Positions 30,769-62,896 of a stretch of DNA of 64,000 nt are shown here, one piece after another. Where the stretch lies: positions 1,180,001-1,244,000 of the forward strand of contig CM119373.1 of NCBI GenBank assembly GCA_051294905.1. Direction: 5' to 3'. Each line of letters opens with the position of its first letter. The stretch's first letter is position 1. The position numbers and the translations under genes were made by a program. Below the pieces are notes generated by a model. The model was given only the letters and a program-made list of their open reading frames with translations, made no database searches and had not been told where the DNA came from. Source of the DNA: Botryllus schlosseri. Lineage: Eukaryota.

Positions 30769-33700
30769 GTGGGTGGATTTAGGGCTGATCAATAATGTCT
30801 TTTTTGCAAATTTTACTGGCTACTTGATAAAATTGTTGGGTTGGCGGAAAAAATGAAGTGTACCAAATTTGGCCCAATTCCAACCTGTAGGACAGAAGTT
30901 TTTGAGTGGCCGGCCAGGTAATTTTAGAAATTAGTCATATTACCAAAAATAGATTGCCCAGATTGTGAACTTGCGTGGCCAACCAAAAATTTGATTAGTC
31001 TGGCTTGGGATGTGATGACTAAAATATCAGTTTTGACGCATTAGCAGATCCATGGGCCGGTCAAATTTTGGTAGATTTTGTACATTACAATGAAGCAGAA
31101 TATTCTGCGGTAGAGTTATCTAAAGCAAAAATTTTCTTCACGCTGTCTGCAATATGTTGTCACTCGATTTGTCACACTCCTGAAAATGAAAGAATGCCTA
31201 ATGTACCAGATTAAGTCTAATTATAATCGCAATTACGAGAGAAAGTGTCGTCCAACATGCGACCTTGCGTTTGCGCTCGCAGAAAGACCATCGACGATGA
31301 AACATAGGCATAAAATGATTGACACATGTTGGCCGAAACTTTCGATATCGATATGTCCAGGCGCCGAATAATCCAACTCTCGCAAACTGAGCCCAGCAAT
31401 AGACAGTAGATCCGCAGTATACTCAAGTACCAATAATATTGACCTATAATGGCCCGCGCGATGGTTCGTCAATGGAATGTGGCCCTTTGGCCGAAAAGGT
31501 TGGCCACCCCTGATGTAGGAGCATTGCTGTTCGAGAAAGTTTTGAGATTTAGGCTAATAAAAAGACTCAAAAGTTTTCAAATTTCACAGGCCGCCTCATG
31601 GAATAGATTGGTGTTCTAAAAAAACATGCATTATCAATTTGGTTCAATACCAACCTGTAGAAGCAAAGCAATTTAGAATAATTTTTTTAGATTAAAATAT
31701 TTATTATATAAAAATTTAAAAATTTTAAATTTTACTGGCCTCCTAATGAAATTGTTGGATTTTCTGAATAAACGATGCATTTCAAATCTGATTCATTTCC
31801 AATATGTAGAAATTTTTGGATTTATTGAGTAAAAATGAAATTGTTGGATTTTCTAAAAAACGAGGCATGTTGTTGTTGTATGTGGGGTTAATGGTGCTTG
31901 AATACTAATGTCTTGTGCACCAGACCACTTTGAAAATAATCCATCCGCAAAGATTGATCGGGTATACGATGCATGACAAATTTGGTTTGATTCCAACCCG
32001 TAGAAGTGAAGCTATTGTAGTAGAAAATTTTAGCCTGCTTCGACAGGCCGGAATTGATCCAAATTTGGTGTGCAGCGTTTTGTTGGCTATCAAACAATTT
32101 CGCCATGTAGCCAGTAAAATTGAAAAAAAAAGTTGATTTTAGCAGCCCTATCGTTCACACGTTCTGGCACATGACTTATGATTCGTATTTTTTCCAAGGT
32201 TATTCGTGCAGTTGCCAGAGTACTTACGCTCAGAATGTTCAGAGTCCGAGGAGATTACAATGCACCTTATGCCCATCTGTAAGTGTTGTATTTCTTGCTA
32301 TTTAAATAACCGTGCTCAATTCAACGCAATGATCTGAAAATGGACCCTCTCTGTGTAGCAGCATAGTAACGTGGCTCCATTAGATCTCTATGTGCAGTAG
32401 GGGTATTCAAAAATGACTTTTTTTCTCAAATCGTACCGTTGGCTACTTGATAAAATTGTTAGGTTACCTAATTCAAGCCTATACACAAAATTTGGTTCAT
32501 TTCGAACCAGTGTAAGCGGAGTTATTGCTGTCGAAAAATTTGGATTTGAATAAAATAGTATTTACAGTGGGCACCACTATAATAAATAATTAAAGAATTG
32601 GTCACCGTAAATACTATTTTATTCATATTCTAAATTTTTCGACGGCAATAACTCCACTTCCACTGGTTGGAATTAAACCAAATTTGCTACCGTTTCTATA
32701 GACAACCTAACACTTTCATGGGGTGAACAGAAAATTTTTTCAAATTTTTTGTTATTTGTTTTTATATACCGTACCGTAATAAATAGAAACTTTCTTCTCC
32801 TGTAGCAATGCGGCTACTGGCTGGAATTGAACCAAATTTGGTGTGCAGTCTTAAATAAGGTAACCTAACAATTTTATCAAGTAGCCAGTACGATTCGTGA
32901 AAAAAAAGTCATTTTTGAATAGCCTACCCATTGTGCACTTGTGCAGGCTATGCAGAGTGAGTCAACTTATGACAGATCCTTCTCTGTGATTTTTGTCGAA
33001 GTAATGCCAAAAAGATATATTCCTCGATGAGGCTTCATGGTAGGCCTACCTAGTAGGCTATATTTCATTTAAAGAGCTTCTTGGAGGTACAGAACTTCGT
33101 TTTCTCTACTAGTTGCTGACGATTACCCCTGACGAGTGTCAGCCGAAAATATTCGGGTTCATCATCATTTCAATATGAATATGCTCTGCAATGGTATATA
33201 TATGTGTATTTCATTTAATAAAATGAAATAAAGTCGTTCTCTCTCTGTAATTCGTTTGCTTTTGTGCCAATAGGCCTACTCATTAGGTTCAGTTTTTTAT
33301 TAAAAATTTTATCAGGTCAAAACATCACAAGATTGCAATACAGTGGTATCATTCATCCATGAAAAGATATAAAGGTGTCAAAACGACTTGGGGTAGTCTT
33401 TGAAATCAGACACCCAGATGGGGCTGAGCAAAATCAAGTAGGCTGCCCGAGTGATTTCATTTGATTTGAGTCTCACTTGTTGCGACGTCATGAGACTATT
33501 TAGTATTCATAATGTTGACGTTTGATTTGCGACCGATAGTAAATAATGTCAGTGACACATCACAATAAAGGTTAATCGGGTATTTGTTCGGCCTTTTGTG
33601 CCTATTTCGTTGCCTTTTGTGACAATGCTCTGGGCTGATCACGATTTCACATTCACTGATCAGCTTTGTACTACGGTACTTGATTAGTTTGCTGTGATAC

Positions 33701-45700: not shown

Positions 45701-48700
45701 CCACACTGTTGGGAGTTCGTCTATTGGTACTGGTGCTTAAAAATGCGACCAGAAACTCCTAAAAGTGAGGAAAATTAGTATATTATGAATGCAAATCATT
45801 CGATATCACCAAACAGAGTTATAAAAAGTGGGTTTAACAAGACTTTAACTGGAAACAGAGCATTCAACACGATGACTTGGACTCGAGTCATAATACCATG
45901 ACTCGGACTCGACCCTCTGCTCGCTGACTCGCACTTGACTCGGTGGTGAATTGAAAATGACTCGACTTGACTCAAGTCAAAACTATAAAAACAATAAAGA
46001 CTTGTGACTTGGAGCCTTGTAACTCGGTTACAACCCTGGTTCTTGCAGTCATTGCTAGCTCAGAGTCATCACTACTATCAGTGGTGTAGAGTGTCGAGAT
46101 AGCGCAGTGGTATAATCCACAGCGGCAACACCAATGGATGCGGGTTCGAGTCCGACCGAGGTTGACTTCCGAATGCCGATATCCAAGTGTTGGAGGCTTA
46201 CCTAGGCTCCTCCTCGCTATCTCATCCGCGTCAGCGGTGTCTTACAAAAGCCTAGAGGTGGGCAGTGCTATAAGTCGGCAGCTACGGAAAATAAGAAGAA
46301 GTCCGGCCTGGTGTAAATGACCATAGTAGTCGACAAACATCATGAATACCCCAAAACAAACTATCACTGGTGTAGTCAGGGGTGGGTTTTAGTGGTCGAA
46401 ACCCTCCCAATTCAAACTTGTACTGATGGTTATGTCGAAAGGTGACACGATTCCGATAACATATAAGAGCTTCTTTGAGGTACAGAACTTCAATGTACAA
46501 TTTAACAGTATAATCATATTGAAATGAAACCGAATATTTTCGGCTGACACTCATCAGGGGTAATCGTCAGCAACTAGGAGAGAATTGGAAAGAACATTGT
46601 ATATCAACAATCGTATCACAAAACATGACGTCACCAGCATGAAAGAGAGAGCGTTCAATGTACTATTTTCAGTGGGTAGACGAACTCCTTCTGTTGACAG
46701 AGTTTTGGTTGGTGTGTTTTGATAAAAGTCAACTCCAAGGCACACAAATGGAATTGTGAACGGCCCCGCCCAACGATTCGAAATTGGTCGTCTTGATAAT
46801 TTTTCGCACAGATCGGATTATCTAACAGATGTCTGCCGATGGCATGACATGACATAAAACGTTAATGAGTTGCTTCAGAATCAAATCTATTCCATTGCCG
46901 ATTTTTGAATTTCGTTGGTTCTGGTTCTAATTCTAGTTGCACGTGTGGAAATCCAGTCATTTCTACACTTCTGCTCTAAATACCCATTTTATTGGTTCAT
47001 TCCAGTGTACACTCTCCGTTAGCGATTTATTGGTGAGCGATGTAGCCGACACTTATTACTCGATGTACCTGAGATACATTTCTACAGCGGGATCAACGCT
47101 TCTACATCCTGTGCCTGTCCTTGTGTCAAACTACGAGGGTGACACGGGCACTGTCAATCAAGGTGAGTTACTACATTAGCAGTGCTGGTCAATAACTGGT
47201 GCTTCTATGTTTTCAAGTAATCAAGTAGATTTTGCTGATTGTCAATACTTTAGTGCTTCTGTATGTAGACTACTTCTACATGAGCGTGTTTTTTGACAAA
47301 ACTACTACTATGGCTTTGTAACGGTAAAAAAATTTAAATATGTAGCTTTCAAGCGACCACAAGGAATATATGAAGAGCTTCTTGGAGGTACAGAACTTCA
47401 ATATACAATTAAATAGTATATTCATATTGAAATGAACCCGAATATTTTCGGCTGACACTCGTCAGGGGTAATCGTCAGCAACTAGTAGAGAATTGGAAAG
47501 AACATTGTATATCAACAATCGTATCACAAAATATGACGTCACCAGCATGAAATTTCGAATGAGAGAGCGTTCAATGTACTATTTTTAGGTGATACACGAA
47601 CTCCTTTTGTTGACAGAGTTTTGGTTGGTGTATTTTGATAAAAGTTGATTCCAAGGCACACAAATGGAATTGTGAACGGCCTCGACCTACAATTCGAAAT
47701 CGGTCGTCTCGATAATTATTCGCACAAATCGGATTATCCAACAGATGTTTGCCGATGGCAGAATTAATGGCTTTTGATCGATCAGCATCAATCTTGAGTG
47801 GATGAGTTAAGGGTGAGCTTTTCACATCGCGTGACGCACATGTTCTGATAAATCTGGGGACATGTTGGTTTATGCGGTCCTGCAGACGTCTTGACGTTCT
47901 TCCCACGTAGCCACAATCACAGTGGCACCTATATTCGTACACTACATTACTTTGTTGAAGTGCAGGAAGCACGTCTTTGCGTGTTGAAGGGAGCAGTTGT
48001 GTTGTTGTAAAAATCACATTGGTTTTGACTGTATCGTAACATTTACCGACAGCAGAAATCAATTGTTTTTCAAAGCGGGTGGAAATGGGGCCAATCCAAG
48101 GTAGATGGATATAAACATCTTTTATTATTCGTGCGGTGGGCTCTGTTCGTTTTTCTGCGTTGAATTGCGTTAATTTCCTCTCCATGCCGCGGCTGATGAC
48201 GTGTTCAGGGTAACCGTTATCAAGTAAGATTTTTCGGATGTAGTCAAGTTCTAAACTCAATTTGTTACCCGAACATATCATCAGCGCTCTATGCACGAGT
48301 GTGCCTATGAGGTTAATTTTTCTGCGCCGAGGACTAAATGAATTCCAGCGAAGGTATTGGCCTGTGAAAGTCGGTTTTCTGAAAACAGACGTTTCAAATT
48401 TGTTGGTATTGCGCTTTTCAACTAATACGTCCAGAAATGATAATGAGTTATTGCGTTCTTTTTCTATTGTGAATTGCAAGGCCGGGTGAAGCGAGTTTAA
48501 GCGAATGAGAAATTGGTCACACTCCGATTCATTCCTGAAAATGACAAATGTATCATCTACGTATCGGCGGTACAATAGTGGTTTGGCGGACTCACGCTGG
48601 GACAGAAGCTCGCCCTCGTAATACCCTACGAAAATGTTGGCCAAAATAGGTCCCAGGGGACTACCCATGGCTAAGCCGTCTATTTGGCGAAACATGACCT

Positions 48701-51700
48701 CGTTAAAGCTAAATTCCACCGAGCAGGTTGCCGCTTGTAAAAGTTCCACAAAGACGTTACGCGGGATTGATGGTGGCGGTAACTTACCACCGTACAGCGC
48801 GTTGGCACAAATATCAATAGTCTCATGCAGCGGAACGTTCGTAAAAAGACTAGAGATATCAAATGAGCTCAGAAACACGTCTGGATTCGGCAAATCCAGG
48901 TTTCGTATTTCACCAGCGAACGTGAACGAATCGCGAACACATTCCGTGCCGTACAATTCCCGAACCGGTTCCAAAATGTCAGTAAGCCATTTTTTTTACG
49001 AACGTTCCATTGCATGAGTCATATTTTGTGATACGATTGTTGATATACAATGTTCTTTCCAATTCTCTACTAGTTGCTGACGATTACCCCTGACGAGTGT
49101 CAGCCGAAAATATTCGGGTTCATTTCAATATGAATATACTATTTAATTGTACAAGGAATATAATGCCCGCTCTACATCACATTACAGATAATTTGGTATT
49201 TTTCGACCATGTGTATTTCATTACTCTTTGTGACGATCAGGGTTGTAACCAAGTCACAGTCCATCTCACTTTTATAGTGTTGACTCGACTCAAATCGAGT
49301 CATTTTCAATTCACCACCGAGTTTGATCCCGAGTCCAAGTCATCAAGCAGAGGTTCGAGTCCAAGACATTGTATTGACTGCTCAGTTTCCAGTTAATGTC
49401 ACGTTAAACCCACTTTTATAACTCTATTTGGTGATATCAGGTGGTTCGCTTTTATACTTTGCTAATTTTCCTCACATTTAGCACTTTCTGGTCGCGTTTT
49501 CAAGTACCAGTACCAATAGACGAAATTCCAATAGTGTGATTACTTCACTATTACTCGAAAATACAATGAAATGTCGGTCTTGGCCGTCCGAGCCTCGAGT
49601 CATTTCCGTATTTTGAGAAAATGACTCGAGTCTGGTCGAGTCATCGGAAAGTCGTGACTCGAGTCATTACAATCCTGGTGAGGATGCTGTGGGCTGATCA
49701 CCACTTGACAAATATAGCATTTGCAGTAACGTGCCTAGTAGGGCTGTTCAAAAAAACTTTTTCAGATTTCACTGGCAACTTGATATAATTGTTAGTTTGG
49801 TGAGAACAACACTTCGCACCAACTTTGACTCAATCCCAACCAGTAGAAACGATTTTTTTGCTGTAGAAAGTTTTGAATTTATCATTAAAAAACAAAAAAA
49901 GAATATTTCAAAATTTTTCTGTCCACCCCTTAAAATTGTTAGGTTGTCAGTATAGATGATGCACACCAAATTTGGCTCAATTCCAACAAGTATAAGCGAA
50001 GTTATTGCAGTAGAAAAATTTGAATGGGAATAAAATAGTATTTACGATGACTAACTCTTAAATTATTTACTACAAAATCACGGAATTCAAAACTTTCAAC
50101 TGCAACAACTTCGCTTCTAGTGGTAGGAATGGAGCCAAAGTTGGTGTGTAGCGTTGTTTTCAACAACCTAACAATTTTATCAAGTAGCCAGTGAAATCTG
50201 AATTGAAAGTTTATTTTTGAACAGCCCTAGTGCCTAGCTTTGGAGGCTACTACATGTTTCGTACGCTGCCGCACAACCAATGGAGATCTACAGCCTTCCA
50301 CAGTGGAAAATAGTATCGAAATTATAATTCTTGTTACTCTTAATGGCAAAAAGCGTATATCTTCAGTAATAGAAAAAACATCTCTCACTCGAATACTCAA
50401 TTCAGATTCGAGTACTCGTATTATTGAGGCCATCTCTAACCGAAAATATGTGTTGACCAATATCAATGACCTTTTACAGTTAATATCAGCATTGATGAGT
50501 ATTTGTGAGCAATATCCTAACCCTCCAATTTCGTGTCTCGTAAATTTATTATACCATTTACCATTACACCATTATATACCAAATGATCAGTTAGTTTGCA
50601 GCCAATTGACTAGATCAAGGGTTCTCAGCCCTTTCCTGGCCATGGCCCATTTTCCGGTTCAAAAATGTGCTGTGGCCCACCTGTTTAATGCGTCGTCATG
50701 GACAACGCCGATATGCCTATTTCTCTAAAATAGGCGCATTTTTCTCTAACTGATGATATTTAGAACTCGCTCTCCCGGGATATGAAATCGCGCCAAGCGC
50801 GAAATAAATTGCAACTAGAGTAAACATCCTCCAACAAACGACCAACGAAATAATCTTGGGCTCCTTCGAGCTCCCCCAATTGGGGGTGAGGGTGCTGCAG
50901 TTACAGCCCTAGTATATCATAAGCTAAAACTCCTAAGTAGATTATTTTCGTCCGCTGCTCCATTCACGTCGCGAAACACAATGATCACTTCCCCGCACTG
51001 TGTGATTGGGACTTAAGTGATAGGCCTACTATTGTGGGGAATACTATAATCATTATGGGCCAGCATCGAACAATTCATTGGTGAATATGGTACCACAGAG
51101 AATCGGAGAATGATTTTTCAATATGCGTGATGTACTTTGTATGTCTTGTGCCAAAACAAGTGAAGTTGCGATGTCAGAATATTCAATCCAATGATACAAT
51201 CAATTCCTGTGACTCTTCCATTATGTATACAATGATTTCCAGGTCGGACATTTTAAACCGACTTCAAAGATTTTTGCACTCCGATAAATTCTCAATCCAT
51301 TAAGATTCGTTGTGTTGGTGCAGTATACATCCGGCAGAAGTTGCAAATAATTTGCTATTATGACTCATTTTAGCTTGCAATAATACGGCCTGCCGAAGTA
51401 CAGTAAATCTGTACATCAATTGCACTTCAATGCGAGTCCATTGCACACCCTTTTCAACGGCATACGACAAATGACCGTGCCGGAATACTTGGTTACTTCA
51501 GCATCATCTTCCAGTTATTATACGCTTGAAATTATTTTAGTTACTGTTAGCCGTAGTTTGTCATAGCCAGTAGAAAAAGCCACCGTTTCTCCCTAACGTT
51601 TTCGATTTGTACATGCTGACTTTATACGTGCCACTACGCCTAATCAGAGTCGGATGAAAAGCTTTATGTAGCGTACGTATAATTCGATTACGTATCTATA

Positions 51701-54700: not shown

Positions 54701-57700
54701 TGTCAGCCGAAAATATTCTGGTTTATTTCAATATGATTCTATTATTCAATTGTATATTGAAGTCCCAAACTTCGATGTGTCTCTTCAAATTCTTGTGCCG
54801 AGTAGATTCATCCGTATTGCTTCAGCGGTTGGTTGAATGCATCCATTTTTTCAGACCATCGTACATTTCGTGATATACACAATATCCAATGCCGCAAACA
54901 TGTTCTTTGTGGTCATGTTCGGATATACATTCGTCTTGCTCTTCTACTTCAAGGTAAGTATGCATGGGAACTTGCATTATCTAATTCAATGCAGTCGTTC
55001 GCTATCTTCTTATTTCAAACGTGCCTTGTGCTTGCGACTCGAGTATCAATGACAAAACTTGTTTTGCAGGGTCAAATGATCGCGACGACTTACGTACCGG
55101 CTAACAACAGCTACGAGACCTATCTCTTCTTTGTCTTCATTTGCTGCGGATTTGTTTTTAAGGTATTCCCTTATTTCTGCTGCCACACACAGAATGGATC
55201 AGTCAGTCTGAGTTGCACAAACTACTGGATTTTCAAAATGCACGACTAGAACTACTCGCCTTTCGAAAACTGTCACTTTCGAAAGCTCACAACTAGAATT
55301 AAAACTAGAACTGGTCATATTTCAAAACACGCAACTACTACACTAAAGCTAATCGCTTTTTAAATTGTGCAACTAGAACTAAAACTAGAACTACTCACTG
55401 TACAAAATTCACAACTAGAACTAGAAATGGGCTTCTTGGAGGTACAGAATTTCGATATACAATTGAATAGTATATTGATATTAAAATGAACCCGAATATT
55501 TTCGGCTGACACCCGTCAGAGGTAAGCGTCAGCAACTAGTAGGGAATTGGAAAGAACGTTCTATATATATACGATTGTTGTTATACAATGTTCTTTCCAA
55601 TTCTTTACTTGTTGCTGACAGTTACCCCTGACGAGTGTCAGCCGAAAATATTCGGGTTCATTTCGATATGAATAATGAATATAGGCTACTATTCAATGGA
55701 ACTAGAAATAAGCACACTTTTTAAATGTTCAACCAAGACTAGAACTACTCACTTTTCAAAACTAGCAACTATATCTATAACTAATCACTTTTTCAAATCT
55801 GCAACCATGGCCTACTAGTGTGCAAACAGATCTGGAACTAGTCGCTTTTCAACAACAGCAACTAGAACAGTGGTACTGAAACTTTTTAGACACCCCCCTT
55901 TATGATAATAAAATGGGTGAAAAAACTTGTTCAGTTTGCCGCAGCTTCGCGTCCCAGTCAGATGTTTTCACGTCCCACAGTTTGAGAACCACTAAACTAG
56001 AACTTGAACTGCTCGCTTTTCAAAACTATCATCCAGAACTAGTGCTACCGGTAGTCAATTTTTGAAAAGCTATCAACTGGAACATGGCTGGCCAACCTTT
56101 TTTATTCACGGCCGCATTACGATTACTTTTGTAGCCTACGGCCGCATTGTAGCGCATTTTTTCAGATCCACGGATGAATTTCGTCATTTATATTAGTAGT
56201 TTCACATATTACTATCAATTATTATTGATTCTTTTTATCCGATGCGGTCAGATTCAATCCACGCATTGAATCGTGCATAACGTGAAGAAAATTTCAAGAT
56301 TAATTAAAATCTCTCAAAAATCCGGGAGTCAATTCCAGGGTTGTAATGACTCGAGTCATAACTCGACTTGACTCACGATTTTCTGAGGACTCGACTTGAC
56401 TCAAGTTATTTTCTCAAAATATCGAAATGACTGGACTCGAGTGAATATCTGTGTATTGACTCGAACCAAGTCATATGACTTGAAACTCAGACGGCCAAGA
56501 CCGACATTTCATTGTTATTACAAAGAATAGTAAAGTAACCACACTATTGGGTTTTCGTCTATTGGTACTGGTACTTGGAAAAACAGAGTTATAGAAAGTG
56601 GGTTTAAAAAGACTTAAATGGGCAACTGAGCAGTCAACACAACGACTTGGAATCGGACTCGAGTCATAATACCATGACACAGACTCGACCATCTGTTCGC
56701 TGACTTCGACTCGGTGGTGAATTGAAAATGACTCGACTTGACTCAAGTCAAAACTATAACAGTGAGATTGACTTCTGACTCGGAGCCTTTTGAATTGGTT
56801 ATTTATAGCCCTGGTCAATTCGTGTACTCAATTTGCACGTCAACGGCCTACGACACATACTAATTGAATTACGCGCGTCTGCGGCCGCAGGTTGTCCAAC
56901 CCTAAACTAGAACCACCTACTTCCATAATTGCACAACTAGAACTAGAACTATCCACTTTGAAAAATGTGCAACTAGAACTAGTAGCTTTTGAAAACGCGC
57001 AACCAGAACTAGAACTAGATCTGCTTAGTAAGCAGTAGCTAGTTGTCTGTCGACTAACGATATTGCTAGCTCGCATAAGTATGGTTGTGTCATATTCATA
57101 AAACATCCCTTGCATTACAGGCTATCAGCGTGATCATCATGATCTTCAAGCAATCGTTCGTTGATATTTTTTTCCTTGACTGGGAGAGACCGCGATCTCA
57201 GCAAGCCGCCGGCGATGCCGACAAGATCAGCATATGGAGAACATACTTTATAGCCAACGAATGGAACGAGATTCAGGTGTGTTACTGCGTATTTTTGCTG
57301 GCTTGATCATTTACACTTACTCTTTGAAATGTTTAGACATCTCGCAAAGTCAACACGACGCTCCAGCTGTTTATTGTGGTATTTTTTCTGGAGGTGGGTT
57401 GTCTGTGCAAGATTGTTCATCCAATCATGATATAGGGGAGAGGAGGCCTAGATGAGACACTTTTCTGATATTACAACATCACTCAATGAGTAATGCCTTC
57501 TGAGGATTAATTTTGGCACCAACGGAAAGCCTGTCATCTGTACTATTTATGGCTATGGCTTGAGTTACATTAAACAACGTACTTATGGATTTCTTGGCCC
57601 ACAAAAATCCTTGCTCAAATGTCTCAACATACCCCCAGGTGAGGATAACATGAGACACCAAGCAATTCTTGCTCATTACACCACCAATATATCCCAAATG

Positions 57701-60700
57701 ATGAATCAACAAGCAACATCATGAATAGAATGTAATAATCATGAAATAATCCACTTTTAAAAAGAATTCCTACATCATAGACGAATTTAAATGACATCGA
57801 AAACCAATTGTCCATGGGATCCATCAACAATAAGAGTTCTGTTAATATTTTGTCTTGTAATGTACATCTGGTCAACTACCAGTGTTGGGATGACTGGAGT
57901 CACCTTTTTCGTATGACTTGACTTGACTCGAGTCACTTTGCTAAAATGACTTGACTTGACTTGACTCGGCGTATCAGAAATGTGGATTGACTCGTGACTC
58001 GAAGCAAAATTCACGAGTCAATTTCAAGTCAACACGTAATCGTTGTCGATAAAAATAAATGTATCTTTCATATGTTCGGATTGTTCGCGAAACGCTGGTG
58101 TAACCCGTGAGAGCGACCAATCATTTAGTGATCGTCCAATTTACTGAGCCTTCATTGTTCTCTCACAAATAAATTGACCGCAAACGAAGTGATCGACGCT
58201 TATACTTTGTCGTAAACTAGTATAGTATAGAAATTTAATAGCAAAATGTATCTTTCTATTCTTACCTTAACCAAACCTCTGTTTCATTGAAAATGAATTC
58301 GAATATAGTTTATATAGTCCGCAACCATCGAATTGTATCATATCAATTTGTAAATGGTTAATGTATTGCATCTTATCAATTCGTTTCTCCATTCTCTATT
58401 TGGCTTGTAATTATATAAACGGAGGGATATGCAATTACTTACGTATAGTTTAGCAGTTCTACGTATATGTATTTGAGCGATACAGCCCCTTCTTGCGTGT
58501 ATATTTAACTCTATATTCGTTCATTGGCTCAAAATCAATGACCACTCAATCTGTATTTCAGACAGCTAGCAAAATGCAATGACGTAATCATGCCTCATAC
58601 CTCGAAAAGGCGACTTGACTTGAATTGTGACTTGACTCGTGACTTGACTTGACTTGACTCGACTTGACTCGAGTCACCTCCAAAAATCGAGTGACTTGAC
58701 TTGACTCAAGTCAAAATGTGCAATGACTCGAAATGACTCGTGACTCGAAGGTAGTGACTTGATCCCAACACTGTCAACTACGGGATAAATAATCTATTAT
58801 GTGTGCCTTGAACAGTACTTTTTGAATATTGCGATGCTTTTAAATGGAAAAGCCCTCCGATGCCTCAAATTACTCCCATGGGTTTGTCTCATCCTACCCC
58901 CACACCTGAATTATTGTATAAACTTCAATAAAAAATATTCTGTCAATTACTTTTCAGAGGTAAGTGCATGGTTACACTGCTAATATTGCACTCTACCAGC
59001 TCCAGTAATGTTGTTTTAAAATATAAAATGCTATCATAGTTATGTTCTTACAAACATAAATTCACATATCTGACACAGACAATAGAGTTTTTTGCACTTT
59101 TCTGCGCAACCTCAAATCTGTTTGTCTTGTGAATACGGTAGGACTATAGAATGATATCCATCAGAAAATTGTCGAATGAAAAAATTCCATGTCTCATCTT
59201 GGCCTCCTCTCCCCTACCTGGGGTCATACAAAACGATTCGGGTAGTCAACTCTGAATCGAGCATTCGTTGTAATGATTCGAGCCTTTATTCCAATACAGA
59301 AATGTTGCGCTCCTTGTCACTAACAGTTGATTTATCTACGCAAATGATAGTTTCGATGCTGTTTTTCACTATGGAAGGCTGTAAACCTAGATTGGTGATA
59401 TTGCAGCATACCAAAGCTACGCACGGTCGTGTAAATAACATGGCGTAACTATTATCAACACACAGCATTGTAACAAAGTCCAATGAAATGAACATGTTGA
59501 AAAAAATACAAAATGATAATGAATGTCATGTACCACTAGAGTCATATTCTTTATAGTAGCATGCAAGGCACATGTTTGAACTTTCCAAATCTCACATACT
59601 GTTATGATGCCATGATGAGTGACAAACGAATGCTACAATCAGAATCGCTTCACTCAGGTACTTGATTTTGACCGGCCGTAGACATTAGATCCTACATATC
59701 TATCTTGTTAGTTTTCATTTATTAAAGGGGCACTGCACTCTAAAAATGATGTGGTCTCAAATTGAAGGGCAAAACGAAATAGAAATTTTGGCCGCAGCCG
59801 ATTTTTTCAGAACCCCACCGTAATGGAGCTGCAATTTATTGAAATTTCAATAGCAACTTCACGCCCCAGCAGTCAGCAGAGATCGAACTTTATATAGTTG
59901 TCAGCGTTACTACAGTCTATAAATTAATTCTAATTTAATTTGGAAAAATCTTTGGAGCTATCGTTCTAATTACAATGTAAGTTTGAAAAACTGTGTACCT
60001 ATAATTCTAAACGTAACTATGAATGTAACTATGAATGTAATTCTAATCTTTTCTGGAAAAATCTGTGTAGCTATTGTTCTAATTCTAATCTAAGTTTGAA
60101 TAAACTGTGTAGCTATAAGTCTAAGCCTATTTGGAAAAAGCTGTGTAACTATGATTCTAATCTGAGTTGAAAAAATATGTGTAGCTAAAATTCTAATCTA
60201 TGTTTCAAAAGACTGTGTAGCTATAAGTCCAAGCTAATCCAGTTTGAAAAAAACTTTCTATCTACAGGGCCTAAGTCTAATCCTATTTGAAGAAAGCTGT
60301 GTAGCTATATTTAAAATTCCAATCTAATTTGTAGAGGCTGAAAATTTTCCTGCTGTCCCACTTTGTCTTAACCTGTTAGTTGGTATTTATTGCTGATCCT
60401 CACTCGCTTCAAGATCGTCAACTTCAAGAATTTTGCATTGCTCAACGCCAGCACGGAATTGAATCCATCCTCAGATATCTATACTCCTGCATACAGCGAT
60501 CTGCTGCGTTTTGGTGTCAGCATGTCCGTATTTATCGTCGTTGAATTACTGCAGGTTTGTGTTCGAATATGCAAGTATTCAAGTGAAGTCGATGCAAAAT
60601 TGAATACATTGTTCATATACAAACAAATCCGACTATTTGTGGCTGACACTCGCCATGGGTAATCGTCAGCAATTAGTAGAGAATTGAGAATAACTTTGTA

Positions 60701-62896
60701 TGTATGATTGCATGCACAGTTGTTAATGTACAATGTTCTTTCCAATTCTCTACTAGCTGCTGACGAATACTACTGAGGACTGTCAGCCCAAAATATTCAT
60801 GTTTATTTCAATATCGATATACCATTCAATTGTGTATAGAAGGTCTGTATGTCCATTGTCCAAGATTCTCCTATCTATTTTAGGCAAGATTTATTCCATG
60901 TATTTGCTCTGTACTCTGTGTGGACAATATATCGACATAATTTGTTCTTTTTGTTTCAGCTGATCTACTTCAAGCTAATCCACGAAAGATTCATCAGCGA
61001 CCGCATGAGGGATTTCGTGGATCTGTGCTCCGTTTCAAACGTAATGCATAGTAACTATCGTCGGTACTCGATTATGCGTAGAAGTGTTGGATTCTAAGTT
61101 AAAAAGAAATATTGTAGGCCTAATTTCGCCCCTAATAAACAAAAAAACTGTCAAGTACAAGTGATGATGATCTGAACACATAACCTTAGTGCAGGTTGAT
61201 AAAACCTACTTGAGTAGTCATAAAAAGTAACATTACCCTGTCACTGACCATCTCTGCTGGCTACAAGTACTTGTTGTTGCTAATTCCATTACAATTTAGC
61301 AAATTTTTTGAGATTTGTGATGCATACCCTCAGAATTGTGCAATATTTACAAATGTTCTTTTTTGAATTCTGAGGAAATTTCTGAGAAAAAATTCTAAAT
61401 ATTTTTGTCACTAGGTGGTGCTACATACAAAATATTTAAAATCGATATTTGTCGCTTTAATGATGGTAGAGAACCAATTAAAATGTCCAATTAACCAATT
61501 CTGGGGCCAAGGAATTGAAAAAAATCAACTGTTTCGCTCTAATCTTAATCAAAAAAAGTGTATGAAATGAGTGACCCCGGTTGATTGTGCGAAACCATTT
61601 CAGGTGAGCGTGTTCATACTGTCGCAACAAGCCTACGGATATTACATACACGGACGATCCATTCACGGTAAAGCCGACACCGATATGTCCGAGATGAATG
61701 TCATGATGAAACGAGAAGAGGTTGGTAGAAAACTGCTTACACTGTGGTAAATTTTCAAAAATTATGGGCTGGTGATTAATATGTATCAAAATGATACACA
61801 TACAGCACGCTAGTACATCAATTAGTTATTGCATATTCAGTCCATGTGATTGTTGAGCTTAAGCTTTCGGTCTGACAATGTTCTTATTTACTGGTTTGGT
61901 GGAAGAAAGTTTGAGAATTTCATTAGGCTTAGGGTACGATGTGGTAATTTTTATACTAAATAGAGTCAAACTGTCATTTTCGAAGCTCGATGGAGGTCGC
62001 CGTCTCTTACATCTTCAACGAGTCAATTTTTTAAATTTCTTTCTTGCATAGTGTGTAGCGTTATGAAATGAATGAGGATATATTTTGTTAATTTTTCGTG
62101 GCTTCCTGAAAATGGCTCGCGGACAACTAGTTCATTCCAGTCCTCTAATTAAAGCAAATTCAACAAAATGCCGGTAACTTAATTGTAATCTAGTTTATAG
62201 TTTTCCTGAAAATTGATACAAGAGAACGATATAATGCTAATTGAGCTAAGCTTAAATTAGTGTACAATTATGAGGACCAACCATAATGCGATAGGGACTG
62301 GACTTGCTTTTTATCGTCGTTCGTTCAAATTCGGAATGTAATTCAATTTCATTCATTAGTTTTAATCCTAATCTAATTTGAAAAACGTGAAAATTTTGTA
62401 GTTGCTCAACCCTGGTTGAGAAGCACTGATATAAATGTGTTCATTTTCGATGACAACGCGACTTATTCTGGATATTTTCCGTTACCAGGAAGATCTGGTG
62501 CCGAGACGCGGGCTCGAGACGGGTTCCGACAAGCAAGTCTTCGAATTGCTCATCCCGCCAAAGATGAGAGTACAGTACGACAAAATCTACGAGCCATTGC
62601 AGCAACAGGTAGGCTCTTTTCTGCATGATTTTGTGTTCGGGCGAGATCAGGGGCTCTCAATCTGTGGACCATGGCCAATGTACGCTGCGTTTACTGCCAG
62701 ATCAAAGAGCTTTTGGGTCTTTTAGCACTTGAAGATTTGAATGGCCATGGCGGTAACGTCATGTGTTGATAGCATTTATAATATGCGCGTCTATTTAGAA
62801 TTGTCAACTACTTGCTGACGATTATTCAATTGAAGAATTTACCGAATTAACGAATCTCATTACTTTTTCAGATACGTTCTCAGCCTCAAGGCAATG
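30591..62896 (+). CDS. TMEM67: Meckelin / transmembrane protein 67 (MKS3): 24 coding exons in window, 3' end lies beyond the window
   Basis: Manually spliced exons with GT-AG introns and consistent phases give 2407 nt (about 802 aa) without a stop. The product has a signal peptide, a Cys-rich CxxC domain, and meckelin motifs WREGRLPWLYY, WQLVSRFFLVD, GSIYPPLL, VDIFFLDWERP, ISIWRTYFIANEWNEIQ, FVDLCSVSN and YGYYIHGRSIHGKADTDM. Confidence 0.96.
32199..32278 (+). CDS. TMEM67: TMEM67 exon 2
   Basis: ttccaag| GYSCSCQSTYAQNVQSPRRLQCTLCPS |gtaagt. Confidence 0.85.
32398..32926. mobile_element. Foldback MITE (TAGGG termini, long TIRs, AAATTTGGTTCAATTCCAACC units)
   Basis: Self-complementary; same family as 39875-40387, 42354-42977, 49739-50229 and the degenerate 30780-32150. 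Confidence 0.8.
33115..33158 (+). ncRNA. Minimal type I hammerhead ribozyme motif in a Penelope pseudo-LTR fragment
   Basis: ACCC-CTGACGA-G(TGTCAGC)C-GAAA-ATAT-TC-GGGT; predicted cleavage after C33154. Confidence 0.7.
33830..34697 (-). mobile_element. Non-autonomous hAT element with dimerisation-domain remnant
   Basis: Termini TA(G/T)GGCGATT...AATCGCCCT(A/G); - strand reads TATVERSFSILGKLL; copies at 40451, 44183 and 53856. Confidence 0.8.
34817..34898 (+). CDS. TMEM67: TMEM67 exon 3
   Basis: ttctag| GLTTPDGYFCATCSSVSCSCAATESLT |gtaaaa, phase 0 to 1. Confidence 0.85.
35204..35830 (-). mobile_element. CR1-like LINE 3' fragment with (CT)n tail
   Basis: Decayed KRSIDYS*PIIRNELPQDI (ORF2 C-terminus) plus a 3' UTR shared with 26760-26945. 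Confidence 0.7.
36202..36283 (+). CDS. TMEM67: TMEM67 exon 4
   Basis: tcacag| VAYSALGTATMSCTSCSETYLAGTGSQ |gtaagg, phase 1 to 2. Confidence 0.82.
36296..36853. mobile_element. hAT-type MITE (CAGGGTTGTAA TIR, GACTCGAGTC arrays)
   Basis: CAGGGTTGTAAT...GTTACAACCCTG; other copies at 43297-43891, 45570-46038, 49238-49677, 52600-53111 and 56336-56813. Confidence 0.88.
38039..39299 (+). mobile_element. Chapaev3-like (CMC) DNA transposon, internally deleted
   Basis: CAC...GTG termini (CACTGGTCTACA), long imperfect TIRs (about 290 bp), 3-bp TSD TTA, and remnant LKYHEHGWLICLDLKRVNFLLGQQIGYTKFPCFLCYWNS. Confidence 0.8.
39356..39482 (+). CDS. TMEM67: TMEM67 exon 5
   Basis: caacag| SCNPCPDCESVCTASGTSPIYTGGLCFND...VPTS |gtgagt, phase 2 to 0. 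Confidence 0.87.
39875..40387. mobile_element. Foldback MITE copy
   Basis: TSD ATGGACAA/ATGGGCAA; palindromic. Confidence 0.82.
40451..41303 (-). mobile_element. Non-autonomous hAT element copy
   Basis: TAGGGTGATT...GATCGCCCTA; - strand reads QPTTVAVERS. Confidence 0.8.
41342..41398 (+). CDS. TMEM67: TMEM67 exon 6
   Basis: ttacag| TNAYVNENLVAAYGACMAD |gtgagt. Confidence 0.85.
41458..41600 (+). CDS. TMEM67: TMEM67 exon 7
   Basis: follows a 59-nt intron; KAGIKNQTACASLANMCVM... (meckelin N-T-C-x-x-L-x-NMCVM motif); donor TG|gtggga, phase 2. Confidence 0.88.
42354..42977. mobile_element. Foldback MITE copy
   Basis: TAGGGCTCTTCAAAAATGAC...GTCATTTTTAAAGAGCCCCA; about 200-bp arms. Confidence 0.82.
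43132..43228 (+). CDS. TMEM67: TMEM67 exon 8
   Basis: ttatag| (W)REGRLPWLYYEIALND...NFSP |gtaagt. Confidence 0.92.
43297..43891. mobile_element. CAGGGTTGTAA-family MITE copy
   Basis: TIRs present; flanking AGTTCAG duplicated. Confidence 0.85.
44026..44112 (+). CDS. TMEM67: TMEM67 exon 9
   Basis: tttcag| DTVLDLVVAQYRANGTFLGMASVQNGLIQ |gtgaag. Confidence 0.9.
44183..45027 (-). mobile_element. Non-autonomous hAT element copy
   Basis: Collinear with 40451-41303. Confidence 0.8.
45292..45357 (+). CDS. TMEM67: TMEM67 exon 10
   Basis: tttcag| LCQDKSTVSNAAYEFGTEFASS |gtgagt. Confidence 0.9.
46090..46359 (+). mobile_element. tRNA-derived SINE, full length
   Basis: A box TAGCGCAGTGG, B box GGTTCGAGTCC, AAAC tail, and 16-bp TSD ACTATCA(G/C)TGGTGTAG. 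Confidence 0.88.
46464..46846 (-). mobile_element. Penelope-like 3' fragment (GIY-YIG C-terminus plus pseudo-LTR)
   Basis: AIGRHLLDNPICAKNY...KLCQQKEFVYPLKIVH, nearly identical to the end of the 47571-48974 ORF. Confidence 0.88.
47006..47162 (+). CDS. TMEM67: TMEM67 exon 11
   Basis: ttccag| CTLSVSDLL...YSMYLRY...LLHPVPVLVSNY...VNQ G|gtgagt. Confidence 0.92.
47436..47479 (-). ncRNA. Minimal hammerhead ribozyme motif in the PLE 3' repeat
   Basis: Intact CTGACGA / GAAA / TTC core with ACCC:GGGT stem I. Confidence 0.7.
47571..48974 (-). CDS. Penelope-like reverse transcriptase / GIY-YIG endonuclease (N-terminally truncated, open frame)
   Basis: SFDISSLFTNVP, QIDGLAMGSPLGPILANIF, YRRYVDDTF, LSFLDV, VFRKPT and VVYEYRCHCDCGYVGRTSRRLQDRINQH. 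Confidence 0.95.
   Translation of the reverse strand: MEPVRELYGTECVRDSFTFAGEIRNLDLPNPDVFLSSFDISSLFTNVPLHETIDICANALYGGKLPPPSIPRNVFVELLQAATCSVEFSFNEVMFRQIDGLAMGSPLGPILANIFVGYYEGELLSQRESAKPLLYRRYVDDTFVIFRNESECDQFLIRLNSLHPALQFTIEKERNNSLSFLDVLVEKRNTNKFETSVFRKPTFTGQYLRWNSFSPRRRKINLIGTLVHRALMICSGNKLSLELDYIRKILLDNGYPEHVISRGMERKLTQFNAEKRTEPTARIIKDVYIHLPWIGPISTRFEKQLISAVGKCYDTVKTNVIFTTTQLLPSTRKDVLPALQQSNVVYEYRCHCDCGYVGRTSRRLQDRINQHVPRFIRTCASRDVKSSPLTHPLKIDADRSKAINSAIGKHLLDNPICANNYRDDRFRIVGRGRSQFHLCALESTFIKIHQPKLCQQKEFVYHLKIVH
49076..49119 (+). ncRNA. Minimal hammerhead ribozyme motif in the inverted pseudo-LTR
   Basis: Intact core; predicted cleavage after C49115. Confidence 0.7.
49238..49677. mobile_element. 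CAGGGTTGTAA-family MITE copy (reverse orientation)
   Basis: TSD GTGACGAT/GTGAGGAT. Confidence 0.85.
49739..50229. mobile_element. Foldback MITE copy
   Basis: TAGGGCTGTTCAAAAA...TTTTTGAACAGCCCTA; perfect 8-bp TSD GTGCCTAG. Confidence 0.88.
50616..51815. mobile_element. Buster-type hAT element
   Basis: TIR CAAGGGTTCTCA...TGAGAACCCCTG with GTGGCCCAC subterminal motifs. Confidence 0.7.
51966..52071 (+). CDS. TMEM67: TMEM67 exon 12
   Basis: tttcag| ESDTSEWQLVSRFFLVDTLS...YLQL GA|gtgagt. Confidence 0.92.
52136..52235 (+). CDS. TMEM67: TMEM67 exon 13
   Basis: follows a 64-nt intron; IELKPATSTGSIYPPLLHVTY...TVE |gtattg. Confidence 0.9.
53352..53408 (+). CDS. TMEM67: TMEM67 exon 14
   Basis: gttcag| AIFNVHYIASTFDQREGLK |gtgtga. 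Confidence 0.85.
53471..53569 (+). CDS. TMEM67: TMEM67 exon 15 (first TM segment)
   Basis: follows a 62-nt intron; ISMSILGVLAVLYAAVEASGWRRRQGLPFIEFN |gtaagt. Confidence 0.92.
53660..53790 (-). mobile_element. Solo Penelope pseudo-LTR fragment (hammerhead GAAA mutated)
   Basis: Matches 47420-47545. Confidence 0.82.
53856..54638 (-). mobile_element. Non-autonomous hAT element copy
   Basis: TSD GTTATAAT/GTCATAAT; - strand reads AQLQCCQPATAAVERSF. Confidence 0.82.
54855..54953 (+). CDS. TMEM67: TMEM67 exon 16
   Basis: tttcag| TIVHFVIYTISNAANMFFVVMFGYTFVLLFYFK |gtaagt. Confidence 0.92.
55070..55162 (+). CDS. TMEM67: TMEM67 exon 17
   Basis: ttgcag| GQMIATTYVPANNSYETYLFFVFICCGFVFK |gtattc. Confidence 0.9.
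55430..55697. mobile_element. Inverted pair of Penelope pseudo-LTR fragments; intact hammerhead motif at 55614-55657 (+)
   Basis: - copy at 55430-55560 abutting a + copy at 55570-55697. Confidence 0.82.
56336..56813. mobile_element. CAGGGTTGTAA-family MITE nested in a Buster-type MITE (about 56083-56904)
   Basis: Perfect TSD GTCAATTC. Confidence 0.85.
57121..57276 (+). CDS. TMEM67: TMEM67 exon 18
   Basis: ttacag| ...QSFVDIFFLDWERPR...ISIWRTYFIANEWNEIQ |gtgtgt; hallmark meckelin motifs. Confidence 0.97.
57337..57393 (+). CDS. TMEM67: TMEM67 exon 19
   Basis: follows a 60-nt intron; TSRKVNTTLQLFIVVFFLE |gtgggt. Confidence 0.93.
57880..58773. mobile_element. CAGTGTTGGGAT-family MITE copy
   Basis: Perfect TSD TCAACTAC; paralog of 24789-25842. 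Confidence 0.9.
59920..60330. repeat. Degenerate tandem array (CTGTGTAGCTAT..TTCTAATCTA..TTGAAAA, roughly 35-40-nt unit)
   Basis: About 9 visible units. Confidence 0.65.
60414..60554 (+). CDS. TMEM67: TMEM67 exon 20
   Basis: ttcaag| IVNFKNFALLN...PAYSDLLRFGVS...LLQ |gtttgt. Confidence 0.93.
60575..60845. mobile_element. Degenerate inverted pair of Penelope pseudo-LTR fragments
   Basis: GGCTGACACTCGCCATGGGTAATCGTCAGC (-) followed by TTCCAATTCTCTACTAGCTGCTGACGA...TGTCAGCCCAAAATATTC (+). Confidence 0.7.
60960..61040 (+). CDS. TMEM67: TMEM67 exon 21
   Basis: tttcag| LIYFKLIHERFISDRMRDFVDLCSVSN |gtaatg. Confidence 0.95.
61604..61720 (+). CDS. TMEM67: TMEM67 exon 22
   Basis: tttcag| VSVFILSQQAYGYYIHGRSIHGKADTDMSEMNVMMKREE |gttggt. 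Confidence 0.95.
62489..62608 (+). CDS. TMEM67: TMEM67 exon 23
   Basis: taccag| EDLVPRRGLETGSDKQVFELLIPPKMRVQYDKIYEPLQQQ |gtaggc. Confidence 0.93.
62872..62896 (+). CDS. TMEM67: TMEM67 putative 25-nt microexon 24
   Basis: tactttttcag| ATACGTTCTCAGCCTCAAGGCAATG |gtgagt; in frame (IRSQPQGN) with strong splice sites. Confidence 0.65.

Follow-up and report, generated by a model that had tools for sequence, protein, structure and literature searches.

The locus and its host element

The stretch analyzed here (the window) comprises 64,000 nucleotides (nt) of Botryllus schlosseri DNA (assembly GCA_051294905.1, contig CM119373.1, positions 1,180,001 to 1,244,000 of the forward strand). At positions 49018-49158, its plus strand carries an inverted terminal-repeat fragment (pLTR) of a Penelope-like element (PLE), within which a 44-nt hammerhead ribozyme motif lies at 49076-49119. 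We read this motif as a type I PLE hammerhead in which helix II has been cut to the single pair G10.1:C11.1, a pseudoknot between loop II and an upstream strand standing in its place, and we put the probability of this reading at about 0.72. The fragment forms one arm of a 141-nt inverted repeat, 98% complementary to 47397-47537, and between the arms lies the 5′-truncated open reading frame (ORF) of the element (47571-48995, minus strand), a 474-amino-acid (aa) open frame covering the C-terminal part of the reverse transcriptase (RT) and a GIY-YIG-type endonuclease. For this frame Pfam reported RVT_1 only (E = 5.9e-9), the GIY-YIG-like motif at its C-terminus being a reading by eye. Open frames of 860 aa at other places in the genome share 99% identity with it; a genome-wide protein search returned 9,051 candidates, of which 90 were scored, most of them with 97-99% identity and with open frames of up to 860 aa. 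Many copies of the element are 99-100% identical, and the host is a young Penelope-like element.

A hammerhead identical to that at 49076 (0 mismatches) lies on the minus strand at 47436-47479, in the sense-strand 3′ terminal repeat of the truncated PLE copy. Full-length copies occur in tandem (L045), with a unit of 2,692 nt, an ORF of 848 aa and the motif at the unit boundary. In full-length copies the first AUG of the ORF stands at the position that corresponds to 49130-49132 (plus strand) in the short inverted fragment seen here, 14 nt past the predicted cut. The combination of an ORF with RT and GIY-YIG-like parts and a motif in the terminal repeat is the one that characterizes PLE minimal hammerheads. 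Terminal repeats are also where published PLEs are described as carrying their hammerheads, and a truncated copy in inverted orientation often precedes the element (PMC4209133, PMC8557442); the motif described here lies in a fragment of that kind.

Architecture and occurrence of the motif

The plus strand at 49076-49119 reads GCTGACG ATT ACCC CTGACGA G TGTCAGC C GAAA ATATTC GGGT, letter for letter as given in a first-pass annotation of this DNA. The motif opens with the strand GCUGAC (49076-49081), which, judged by complementarity and covariation, is the 5′ strand of the pseudoknot helix and substitutes for the 5′ strand of helix II. The alignment places next G49082, which belongs to a non-conserved pair, and a linker AUU to stem I (together 49082-49085); this linker is 3 nt long in all 14 aligned sequences, while its letters vary (ATT, TTC, GTC, ATA, TTA, GTT). 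Stem I is formed by ACCC (49086-49089) and GGGU (49116-49119). Its 5′ strand leads into the catalytic core C3-A9, CUGACGA (49090-49096), which is followed at 49097-49105 by G10.1, the one-base bridge U49098, the 3′ strand of the pseudoknot GUCAGC (49099-49104), assigned by covariation, and C11.1. The remainder (49106-49115) consists of G12, A13 and A14, the palindromic stem III AAUAUU (A15.1 to U16.1) and C17, and cleavage is predicted after C17, between 49115 and 49116.

All bases expected of a hammerhead core, namely C3 U4 G5 A6 N7 G8 A9, G12 A13 A14, A15.1:U16.1 and H17, are present between 49090 and 49115. The core is kept in the sister families B, C, I and others, with C3:G8 to U3:A8 as its sole change (CG in 9, UA in 4 and UG in 1 of the 14 sequences), and H17 is C or U in intact forms. 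G10.1:C11.1 is the only pair of stem II and is invariant in 14 of 14 sequences; the separation from A9 to G12 is only 9 nt, made up of G10.1, seven bases and C11.1, and a descriptor scan of the window and loci likewise returned a helix II of 1 bp in copies of the family. The helices around this fixed center vary. All four stem I pairs are changed on both sides across families, and stem III is AAUAUU or AAGCUU, the center of the palindrome being UA in 2 and GC in 6 of ten sequences, so that each of the three helices around the core shows covariation (stem I, 4/4; the substitute for helix II, 4/6; stem III, center UA/GC). The first-pass annotation had proposed a type I PLE hammerhead whose stem I has 4 bp, whose stem II has 1 bp and whose stem III is a palindrome, and the core and the element context bear this out.

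The motif at 49076-49119 is no chance match. Its central 20-mer has 10 matches in the window at ≤3 mismatches, against 0 expected from 100 shuffles, and a 13-mer search at ≤2 mismatches found 14 matches in the window, 12 of them copies of the repeat and two due to chance (23960 and 55174). Across the 495-Mb assembly, the pattern ACCC-CTGANGA-G-N7-C-GAAAATATTC-GGGT has 3,691 matches, compared with 0 for a reversed-pattern control. The form found at 49076-49119 is the commonest form of the repeat, its 49-mer recurring identically in 71 of 109 matches (63 stretches, 294,477 nt, some overlapping). One subfamily, with 87% identity at the protein level, has 26 differences over the aligned 311 nt, yet none in a block of 65 nt that surrounds the motif.

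A pseudoknot as the probable substitute for helix II

The pairing of loop II with the upstream strand, GCUGACG with UGUCAGC, had been put forward as a 7-bp pseudoknot. The complementarity is there and has strong comparative support, but over 6 bp only: the seventh pair (G.U, 49082:49098) is unpaired in 7 of 9 sequences. For the loop bases 49099-49104, the sole 6/6 Watson-Crick complement within 231 nt is 49076-49081, at offset −14 from the core, and in all four families for which this was determined (A, the family of the window, and B, C and M) a stretch of about 200-240 nt holds no perfect complement of the loop other than the one at this same offset.

Relatives were sought with patterns that fixed the core, G, C and GAAA only and excluded the loop letters of family A. 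Three such searches gave 557, 570 and 470 matches, where their controls gave 8, 12 and 15, and revealed sister families that differ from family A in their letters and agree with it exactly in spacing (a strand of 7 nt, a linker of 3 nt, stem I of 4 bp, the core, G, a loop of 7 nt, C and GAAA). Family B (208 copies) pairs ACUAACG with AGUUAGU and has GCUA/UAGC as stem I and AAGCUU as stem III; it is a full PLE that forms tandem arrays of 2,778 nt, and its 850-aa ORF is 58% identical to that of family A. The family C group (165 copies) pairs ACUGGCG with AGCCAGU, its stem I being ACUG/CAGU or else ACUC or GCUC with GAGU, and its stem III AAGCUU. Family M, known from two metagenome contigs that encode a relative with 60-67% identity, pairs UCUGACG with UGUCAGA and has UCCC/GGGA and AAGCUU as stems I and III. 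A search for the U3:A8 core variant returned 1,373 pattern matches versus 53 in its control, including forms with CGUGCCG/AGGCACG and UGUGUCG/GGGCACA. Viral contigs yielded no relative of the PLE protein, and the one motif match found among them (L077) is a chance match.

In an alignment of ten sequences, the 6-bp knot, stem I, G10.1:C11.1 and the palindrome together have 95.0% of their cells paired, compared with 81.7% in shuffles, none of 500 of which reached that value; 9 of the 14 pairs are changed on both sides, and controls in which the strands were slid gave 19-38%. For the pseudoknot alone, 80 of 84 cells are paired among fourteen sequences (95.2%; slid controls, 27-35%) and four of its six pairs are compensatory, the first of them occurring as AU in 7 sequences, GC in 3, UA in 2, CG in 1 and otherwise in 1. 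Energy minimization predicts the helix between upstream strand and loop for 6 of 9 sequences. The alignments leave out a CTGATGA..GAAA repeat that has no stem I and is no hammerhead (L065), a family B copy whose upstream strand is replaced (L066), a copy in which the contig ends within the upstream strand (L076), two loci that repeat B and C forms already included (L068, L073), and a family L locus with a U3:A8-like core and no recognizable 3′ half (L082). Covariation between the upstream strand and loop II across copies, which had been named beforehand as a check on the pseudoknot, was thus found, and this comparative signal strongly supports a pseudoknot that is real and under selection.

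Family L, represented by L082 (G000:C1:19976480-19976650) and similar matches, has a UUGAAAA-G-CCCAGAC-C-GAAA box. Some 45 nt upstream of it stand six bases complementary to its loop, with a small hairpin, CUAC/GUAG, in between; no hammerhead 3′ half was found at L082.

Proposed mechanism

As we picture it, the loop bases 49099-49104 pair with GCUGAC at 49076-49081, located 3-4 nt upstream of stem I, and the resulting helix would stack on G10.1:C11.1 and so act in helix II's stead. General pseudoknot geometry suggests that U49098, the first base of the loop, may serve as a one-base bridge across the deep groove of the 6-bp helix. Stem III, with 2 bp and a 2-nt loop, is too short to form a hairpin of its own; the ribozyme is therefore expected to work as a dimer, in which two copies would pair through the 6-nt palindrome to form the active site. 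PLE hammerheads have been reported to act as dimers (PMC4209133).

In tandem or read-through transcripts, the predicted cut after C17 (49115|49116) would fall 14 nt before the AUG of the ORF and release a unit-length RNA with a very short leader. The distance from the predicted cut to the first AUG is 14 nt in family A, 19-20 nt in B and C and 4 nt in M, a placement 4-20 nt before the start codon that would suit a ribozyme involved in generating the 5′ terminus of the RNA that is translated. A cut just before the AUG would leave this RNA uncapped as well as short-leadered, which recalls the ribozyme-assisted translation start described for R2-type elements and some RNA viruses (PMC13725137).

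Counterevidence and alternative readings

Several observations weigh against a knotted, self-cleaving hammerhead. The search with Rfam hammerhead models that the first-pass annotation had proposed gave no hammerhead match above threshold: Rfam has 0 matches in the window at the gathering score and no hammerhead family at E ≤ 10 in 48800-49400, and on the sister families two models stay below their cutoffs (RF03152 on family B, 20 bits against a threshold of 56.3; RF00163 on family C, 16.6 bits against 34). The aligned rows were hand-picked, are related by descent and include decayed copies, so that the shuffle counts given above are not probabilities. The commonest U3:A8 form has U opposite C at the first pseudoknot pair, and subfamily J, with 4 occurrences among the first 100 U3:A8 matches listed, has two central pseudoknot mismatches. 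The nested minimum-energy fold of family A contains two ribozyme-incompatible hairpins (−10.5 kcal/mol, versus −9.8 kcal/mol for the best fold that has the upstream:loop helix). For the dimer, the nested part comes to +2.6 kcal/mol, a figure that speaks neither for nor against the reading, since the knot cannot itself be scored. Transcript data show no trace of the cut either. Raw RNA sequencing (RNA-seq) reads on the tandem junction L045:2600-3500 show no pile-up of read begins or ends, and depth is unbroken over the cut site (about 203/184, 207/206 and 177/188 in three 31-nt bins, run X24). Genomic copies run about 66-72 nt past the cut site (loose ends at 3119-3125 of L045), which implies that the copied RNA was uncut at its 3′ hammerhead. 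Finally, published PLE hammerheads are reported to cleave poorly, and insertion in vitro to proceed without need for cleavage (PMC4209133, PMC11167929).

The transcript result is a weak test of cleavage: 96% of those bulk-run reads continue into unrelated sequence and depth is 0 over the 5′ part of the ORF, which points to scattered single fragments, not expected to cut, as their source. A search for copies that start exactly at the cut site returned 82 matches, a count that has no matched control position beside it; most of these are point-mutated hammerheads, and about ten have unrelated sequence upstream.

The uninterrupted reads and the copies that extend past the site would also fit a fold that is real and selected and has ceased to cut itself, serving instead as a structured signal for the element protein, for ribonucleoprotein assembly or for translation start near the AUG. 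Work on other PLEs lends this some plausibility. The Anolis PLE hammerhead is reported to cut only with its protein present, its mutants to leave in vitro insertion unaffected, and no RNA-seq reads to end at its site (PMC11167929), and Naiad PLEs reportedly do well although they have no canonical hammerheads (PMC8557442). However, all catalytic bases are kept across families whose proteins are only 58% identical, H17 remains C or U in intact forms, and C3:G8 changes only to U3:A8, a variant known in PLE hammerheads (Cervera and De la Pena, PMC4209133). We therefore regard a selected fold that does not cut as unlikely, and prefer the self-cleaving, pseudoknotted hammerhead.

The first-pass annotation had gone on to describe the upstream GCUGACGA as a duplicate of the catalytic core, a decoy that would free loop II from an inhibitory core:loop hairpin and so switch the ribozyme on. 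The second complementarity on which this rests, CUGAC in the core with GUCAG in the loop, does exist, in family A only. There the core is a 5/6 match to the complement of the loop, and the minimum-energy fold (−10.5 kcal/mol) holds the CUGAC/GUCAG hairpin, with the upstream:loop helix 0.7 kcal/mol above it. A collapsed variant with a single CTGACGA, found 5 times among the first 100 matches listed, also speaks for the repeat, since its recurrence indicates that the CTGACGA repeat is real at the DNA level. Against a switch, the upstream strand resembles the core in family A alone and not in B, C and M, where the 5/6 matches to the complement of the loop do not include the core. The core:loop hairpin has 0 of 5 compensatory pairs and 75.6% of its cells paired, one of its pairs being unpaired in 6 of 9 sequences, and it appears in the minimum-energy fold of 1 of 9 sequences (that of family A), compared with 6 of 9 for the upstream:loop helix. 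With no compensatory change and a hairpin specific to one family, the decoy switch did not hold up, and we consider it very improbable.

That the motif is a chance resemblance within a repeat, neither ribozyme nor selected structure, is hardly credible: the lack of a significant Rfam match and the instability of the monomer in nearest-neighbor terms (+0.4 kcal/mol for the nested part) would fit it, but it is contradicted by the pair counts of the ten- and fourteen-sequence alignments, with covariation in three helices and a core pair (95% against 19-38% in slid controls), by the 65-nt block unchanged between subfamilies and by the location in a PLE terminal repeat, a known hammerhead site (PMC4209133).

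Comparison with known hammerheads

The closest structural counterpart of the self-cleaving, pseudoknotted reading is the pseudoknot (PK) or RAGATH-1 hammerhead (RF03152), whose discovery is credited to Breaker and co-workers (PMC11300833). In its crystal structure (Zhan et al. 2024), a 6-bp pseudoknot helix replaces helix II, and the short stem beneath it consists of G10.1:C11.1 together with a sheared A9:G12 pair (PMC11300833). The PLE motif shares with it the type I order, a stem II consisting of G10.1:C11.1 only, a 7-nt loop and a 6-bp pseudoknot that has its partner upstream of stem I and plays the part of helix II (PMC11300833); the RF03152 consensus, CUGAUGA-G-7 nt-C-GAAA, likewise has the G-7 nt-C layout. 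The two differ in the partner strand, which in the PK hammerhead lies in the loop of an extra hairpin (helix IV) with an A-rich triplex linker (PMC11300833) and in the PLE motif is unstructured apart from the knot, only 3-4 nt away from the 4 bp of stem I. In the RF03152 alignment itself, a 4-bp "helix IV" is placed upstream of the partner, and there is no pairing between the loop of this helix and loop II. The monomeric PK hammerhead has a long hairpin as stem III, in contrast to the 6-nt palindrome of the PLE motif, which needs a second copy, and the host of the PLE motif is an animal-type retrotransposon, unlike that of PK hammerheads. Measured against RF03152, then, the motif has the one-pair stem II and a knot of about 6 bp, lacks the helix IV partner and stays below 56.3 bits, and family A gave no match to the model.

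With the published PLE minimal hammerheads (PMC4209133), the motif shares its place in the terminal repeat, the type I order, a stem I of 4-5 bp, the conserved G10.1:C11.1, a minimal palindromic stem III from which a dimer was inferred, the U3:A8 variant and a very high copy number. The published forms have a hairpin helix II of 6-8 bp and an extra base between positions 9 and 10.1 (PMC4209133), both of which are absent here. The main text of that paper makes no use of the word "pseudoknot", and its structure descriptor demands a helix II and would therefore be expected to miss knotted forms (PMC4209133). In these terms, the PLE motif merges the pseudoknot (RAGATH-1) design with the PLE minimal hammerhead. 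Our literature search found no description of a pseudoknot-type PLE hammerhead, though Lunse et al. 2017 may contain one.

Two more distant systems also use pseudoknots. A metagenome hammerhead described in 2011 (PMC3088659) has a 1-bp stem II and is active by way of a 6-bp pseudoknot, compensatory mutants restoring activity; it differs from the PLE motif in being a type II ribozyme, open at stem II, with a knot between loop I and the 3′ tail, and in its metagenomic, monomeric nature. The non-circularly permuted types SGC and CSG (Eckert et al. 2023, PMC10085705) form core helices through pseudoknots as well, and in SGC a linker of about three nucleotides joins a stem I strand directly to a stem II strand, as in the PLE motif. 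These types reorder whole C, G and S blocks (PMC10085705), whereas the PLE motif keeps the classic order C-G-S and has moved only the 5′ strand of helix II upstream of stem I.

A separate observation concerns the Naiad PLEs. Some of their consensus sequences, as provided in File_S5 of PMC8557442, are tagged "HHR_half_core", and Naiad PLEs are said in that source to be without canonical hammerheads. Read by eye, at least five of these consensus 3′ ends appear as complete hammerheads in the non-circular order C-S-G, their three stems complementary despite differing letters (stem I GCUUA/UAAGC, UCUUA/UAAGA, AACUCA/UGAGUU, GUCGUA/UACGAC and CCUUA/UAAGG), and an extra helix links the upstream flank to the strand after stem II. 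Type CSG is known from only two metagenome sequences in Eckert et al. 2023 (PMC10085705). Our literature search found no paper linking Naiad PLEs with CSG hammerheads, to which these consensus ends correspond in block order.

Implications

Few ribozyme motifs are as numerous in animal genomes as the PLE hammerheads, and to our knowledge their function and weak activity are still unexplained. The present genome holds several thousand copies in which a pseudoknot stands for helix II, spread over several families, so that the pseudoknot hammerhead design is not limited to phage-type ribozymes. Tentatively, and with slightly less than even confidence, we suggest that animal PLEs carry overlooked hammerheads with a knotted helix II, the smallest natural layout at 44 nt, which would require both the knot and a partner copy. 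Descriptors that look for a hairpin II would miss such forms, and elements listed with an "HHR core" only, or as hammerhead-less, may hold knotted or permuted ones. Should this be so, the poor in vitro activity of PLE hammerheads could partly reflect constructs or folds without such contacts. The present case is a warning that elements of this kind escape current search descriptors and Rfam models. Since the cut site falls 4-20 nt before the start codon in four families (A, B, C, M), whether it helps to produce the translated RNA is open to direct test.

Further copies and side observations

Besides the motif at 49076 and its identical counterpart, motif searching located another intact copy in the window at 33115-33158 (plus strand). 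A copy at 55614-55657 (plus strand) reads GCTGACA, as the first-pass annotation had observed. Its G-to-A change, which had been taken as compatible with pairing, hits the non-conserved seventh position and is no evidence of covariation; the linker of this copy is altered too. This copy belongs to an inverted repeat (I17) in which it stands head-to-head with a decayed copy on the minus strand (core 55500-55519), where A9 has changed to G. Such head-to-head pairs of terminal-repeat fragments, 16-130 nt apart, are frequent (55450-55680 and 60589-60855 in the window; L070 and L073 elsewhere) and give rise to spurious weak microRNA-precursor matches in Rfam.

In bulk RNA-seq, the terminal-repeat fragment at L045:2940-3126 is covered about 200-fold in both read orientations and the ORF is almost silent, so that most expression of the repeat comes from fragments inside other transcripts.

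The collapsed variant mentioned above arose by a 13-nt deletion that reduces the two family A CTGACGA repeats to one, and it recurs at least 5 times (G000:C1:8426869, C1:11476304, C1:21047158, C3:30754 and C3:5656532). Each of these variants lies about 340 nt from an inverted copy with the loop TGTCATC; variant and inverted copy look like a composite unit that has itself been copied.

Hammerheads of families B and C stand side by side at L068 (G000:C1:19470150-19470520), on one strand and with 110 nt between them. Behind each of them come an AUG and the first ORF codons of its own, an arrangement that could stem from a nested insertion or from a template switch between two PLE families.

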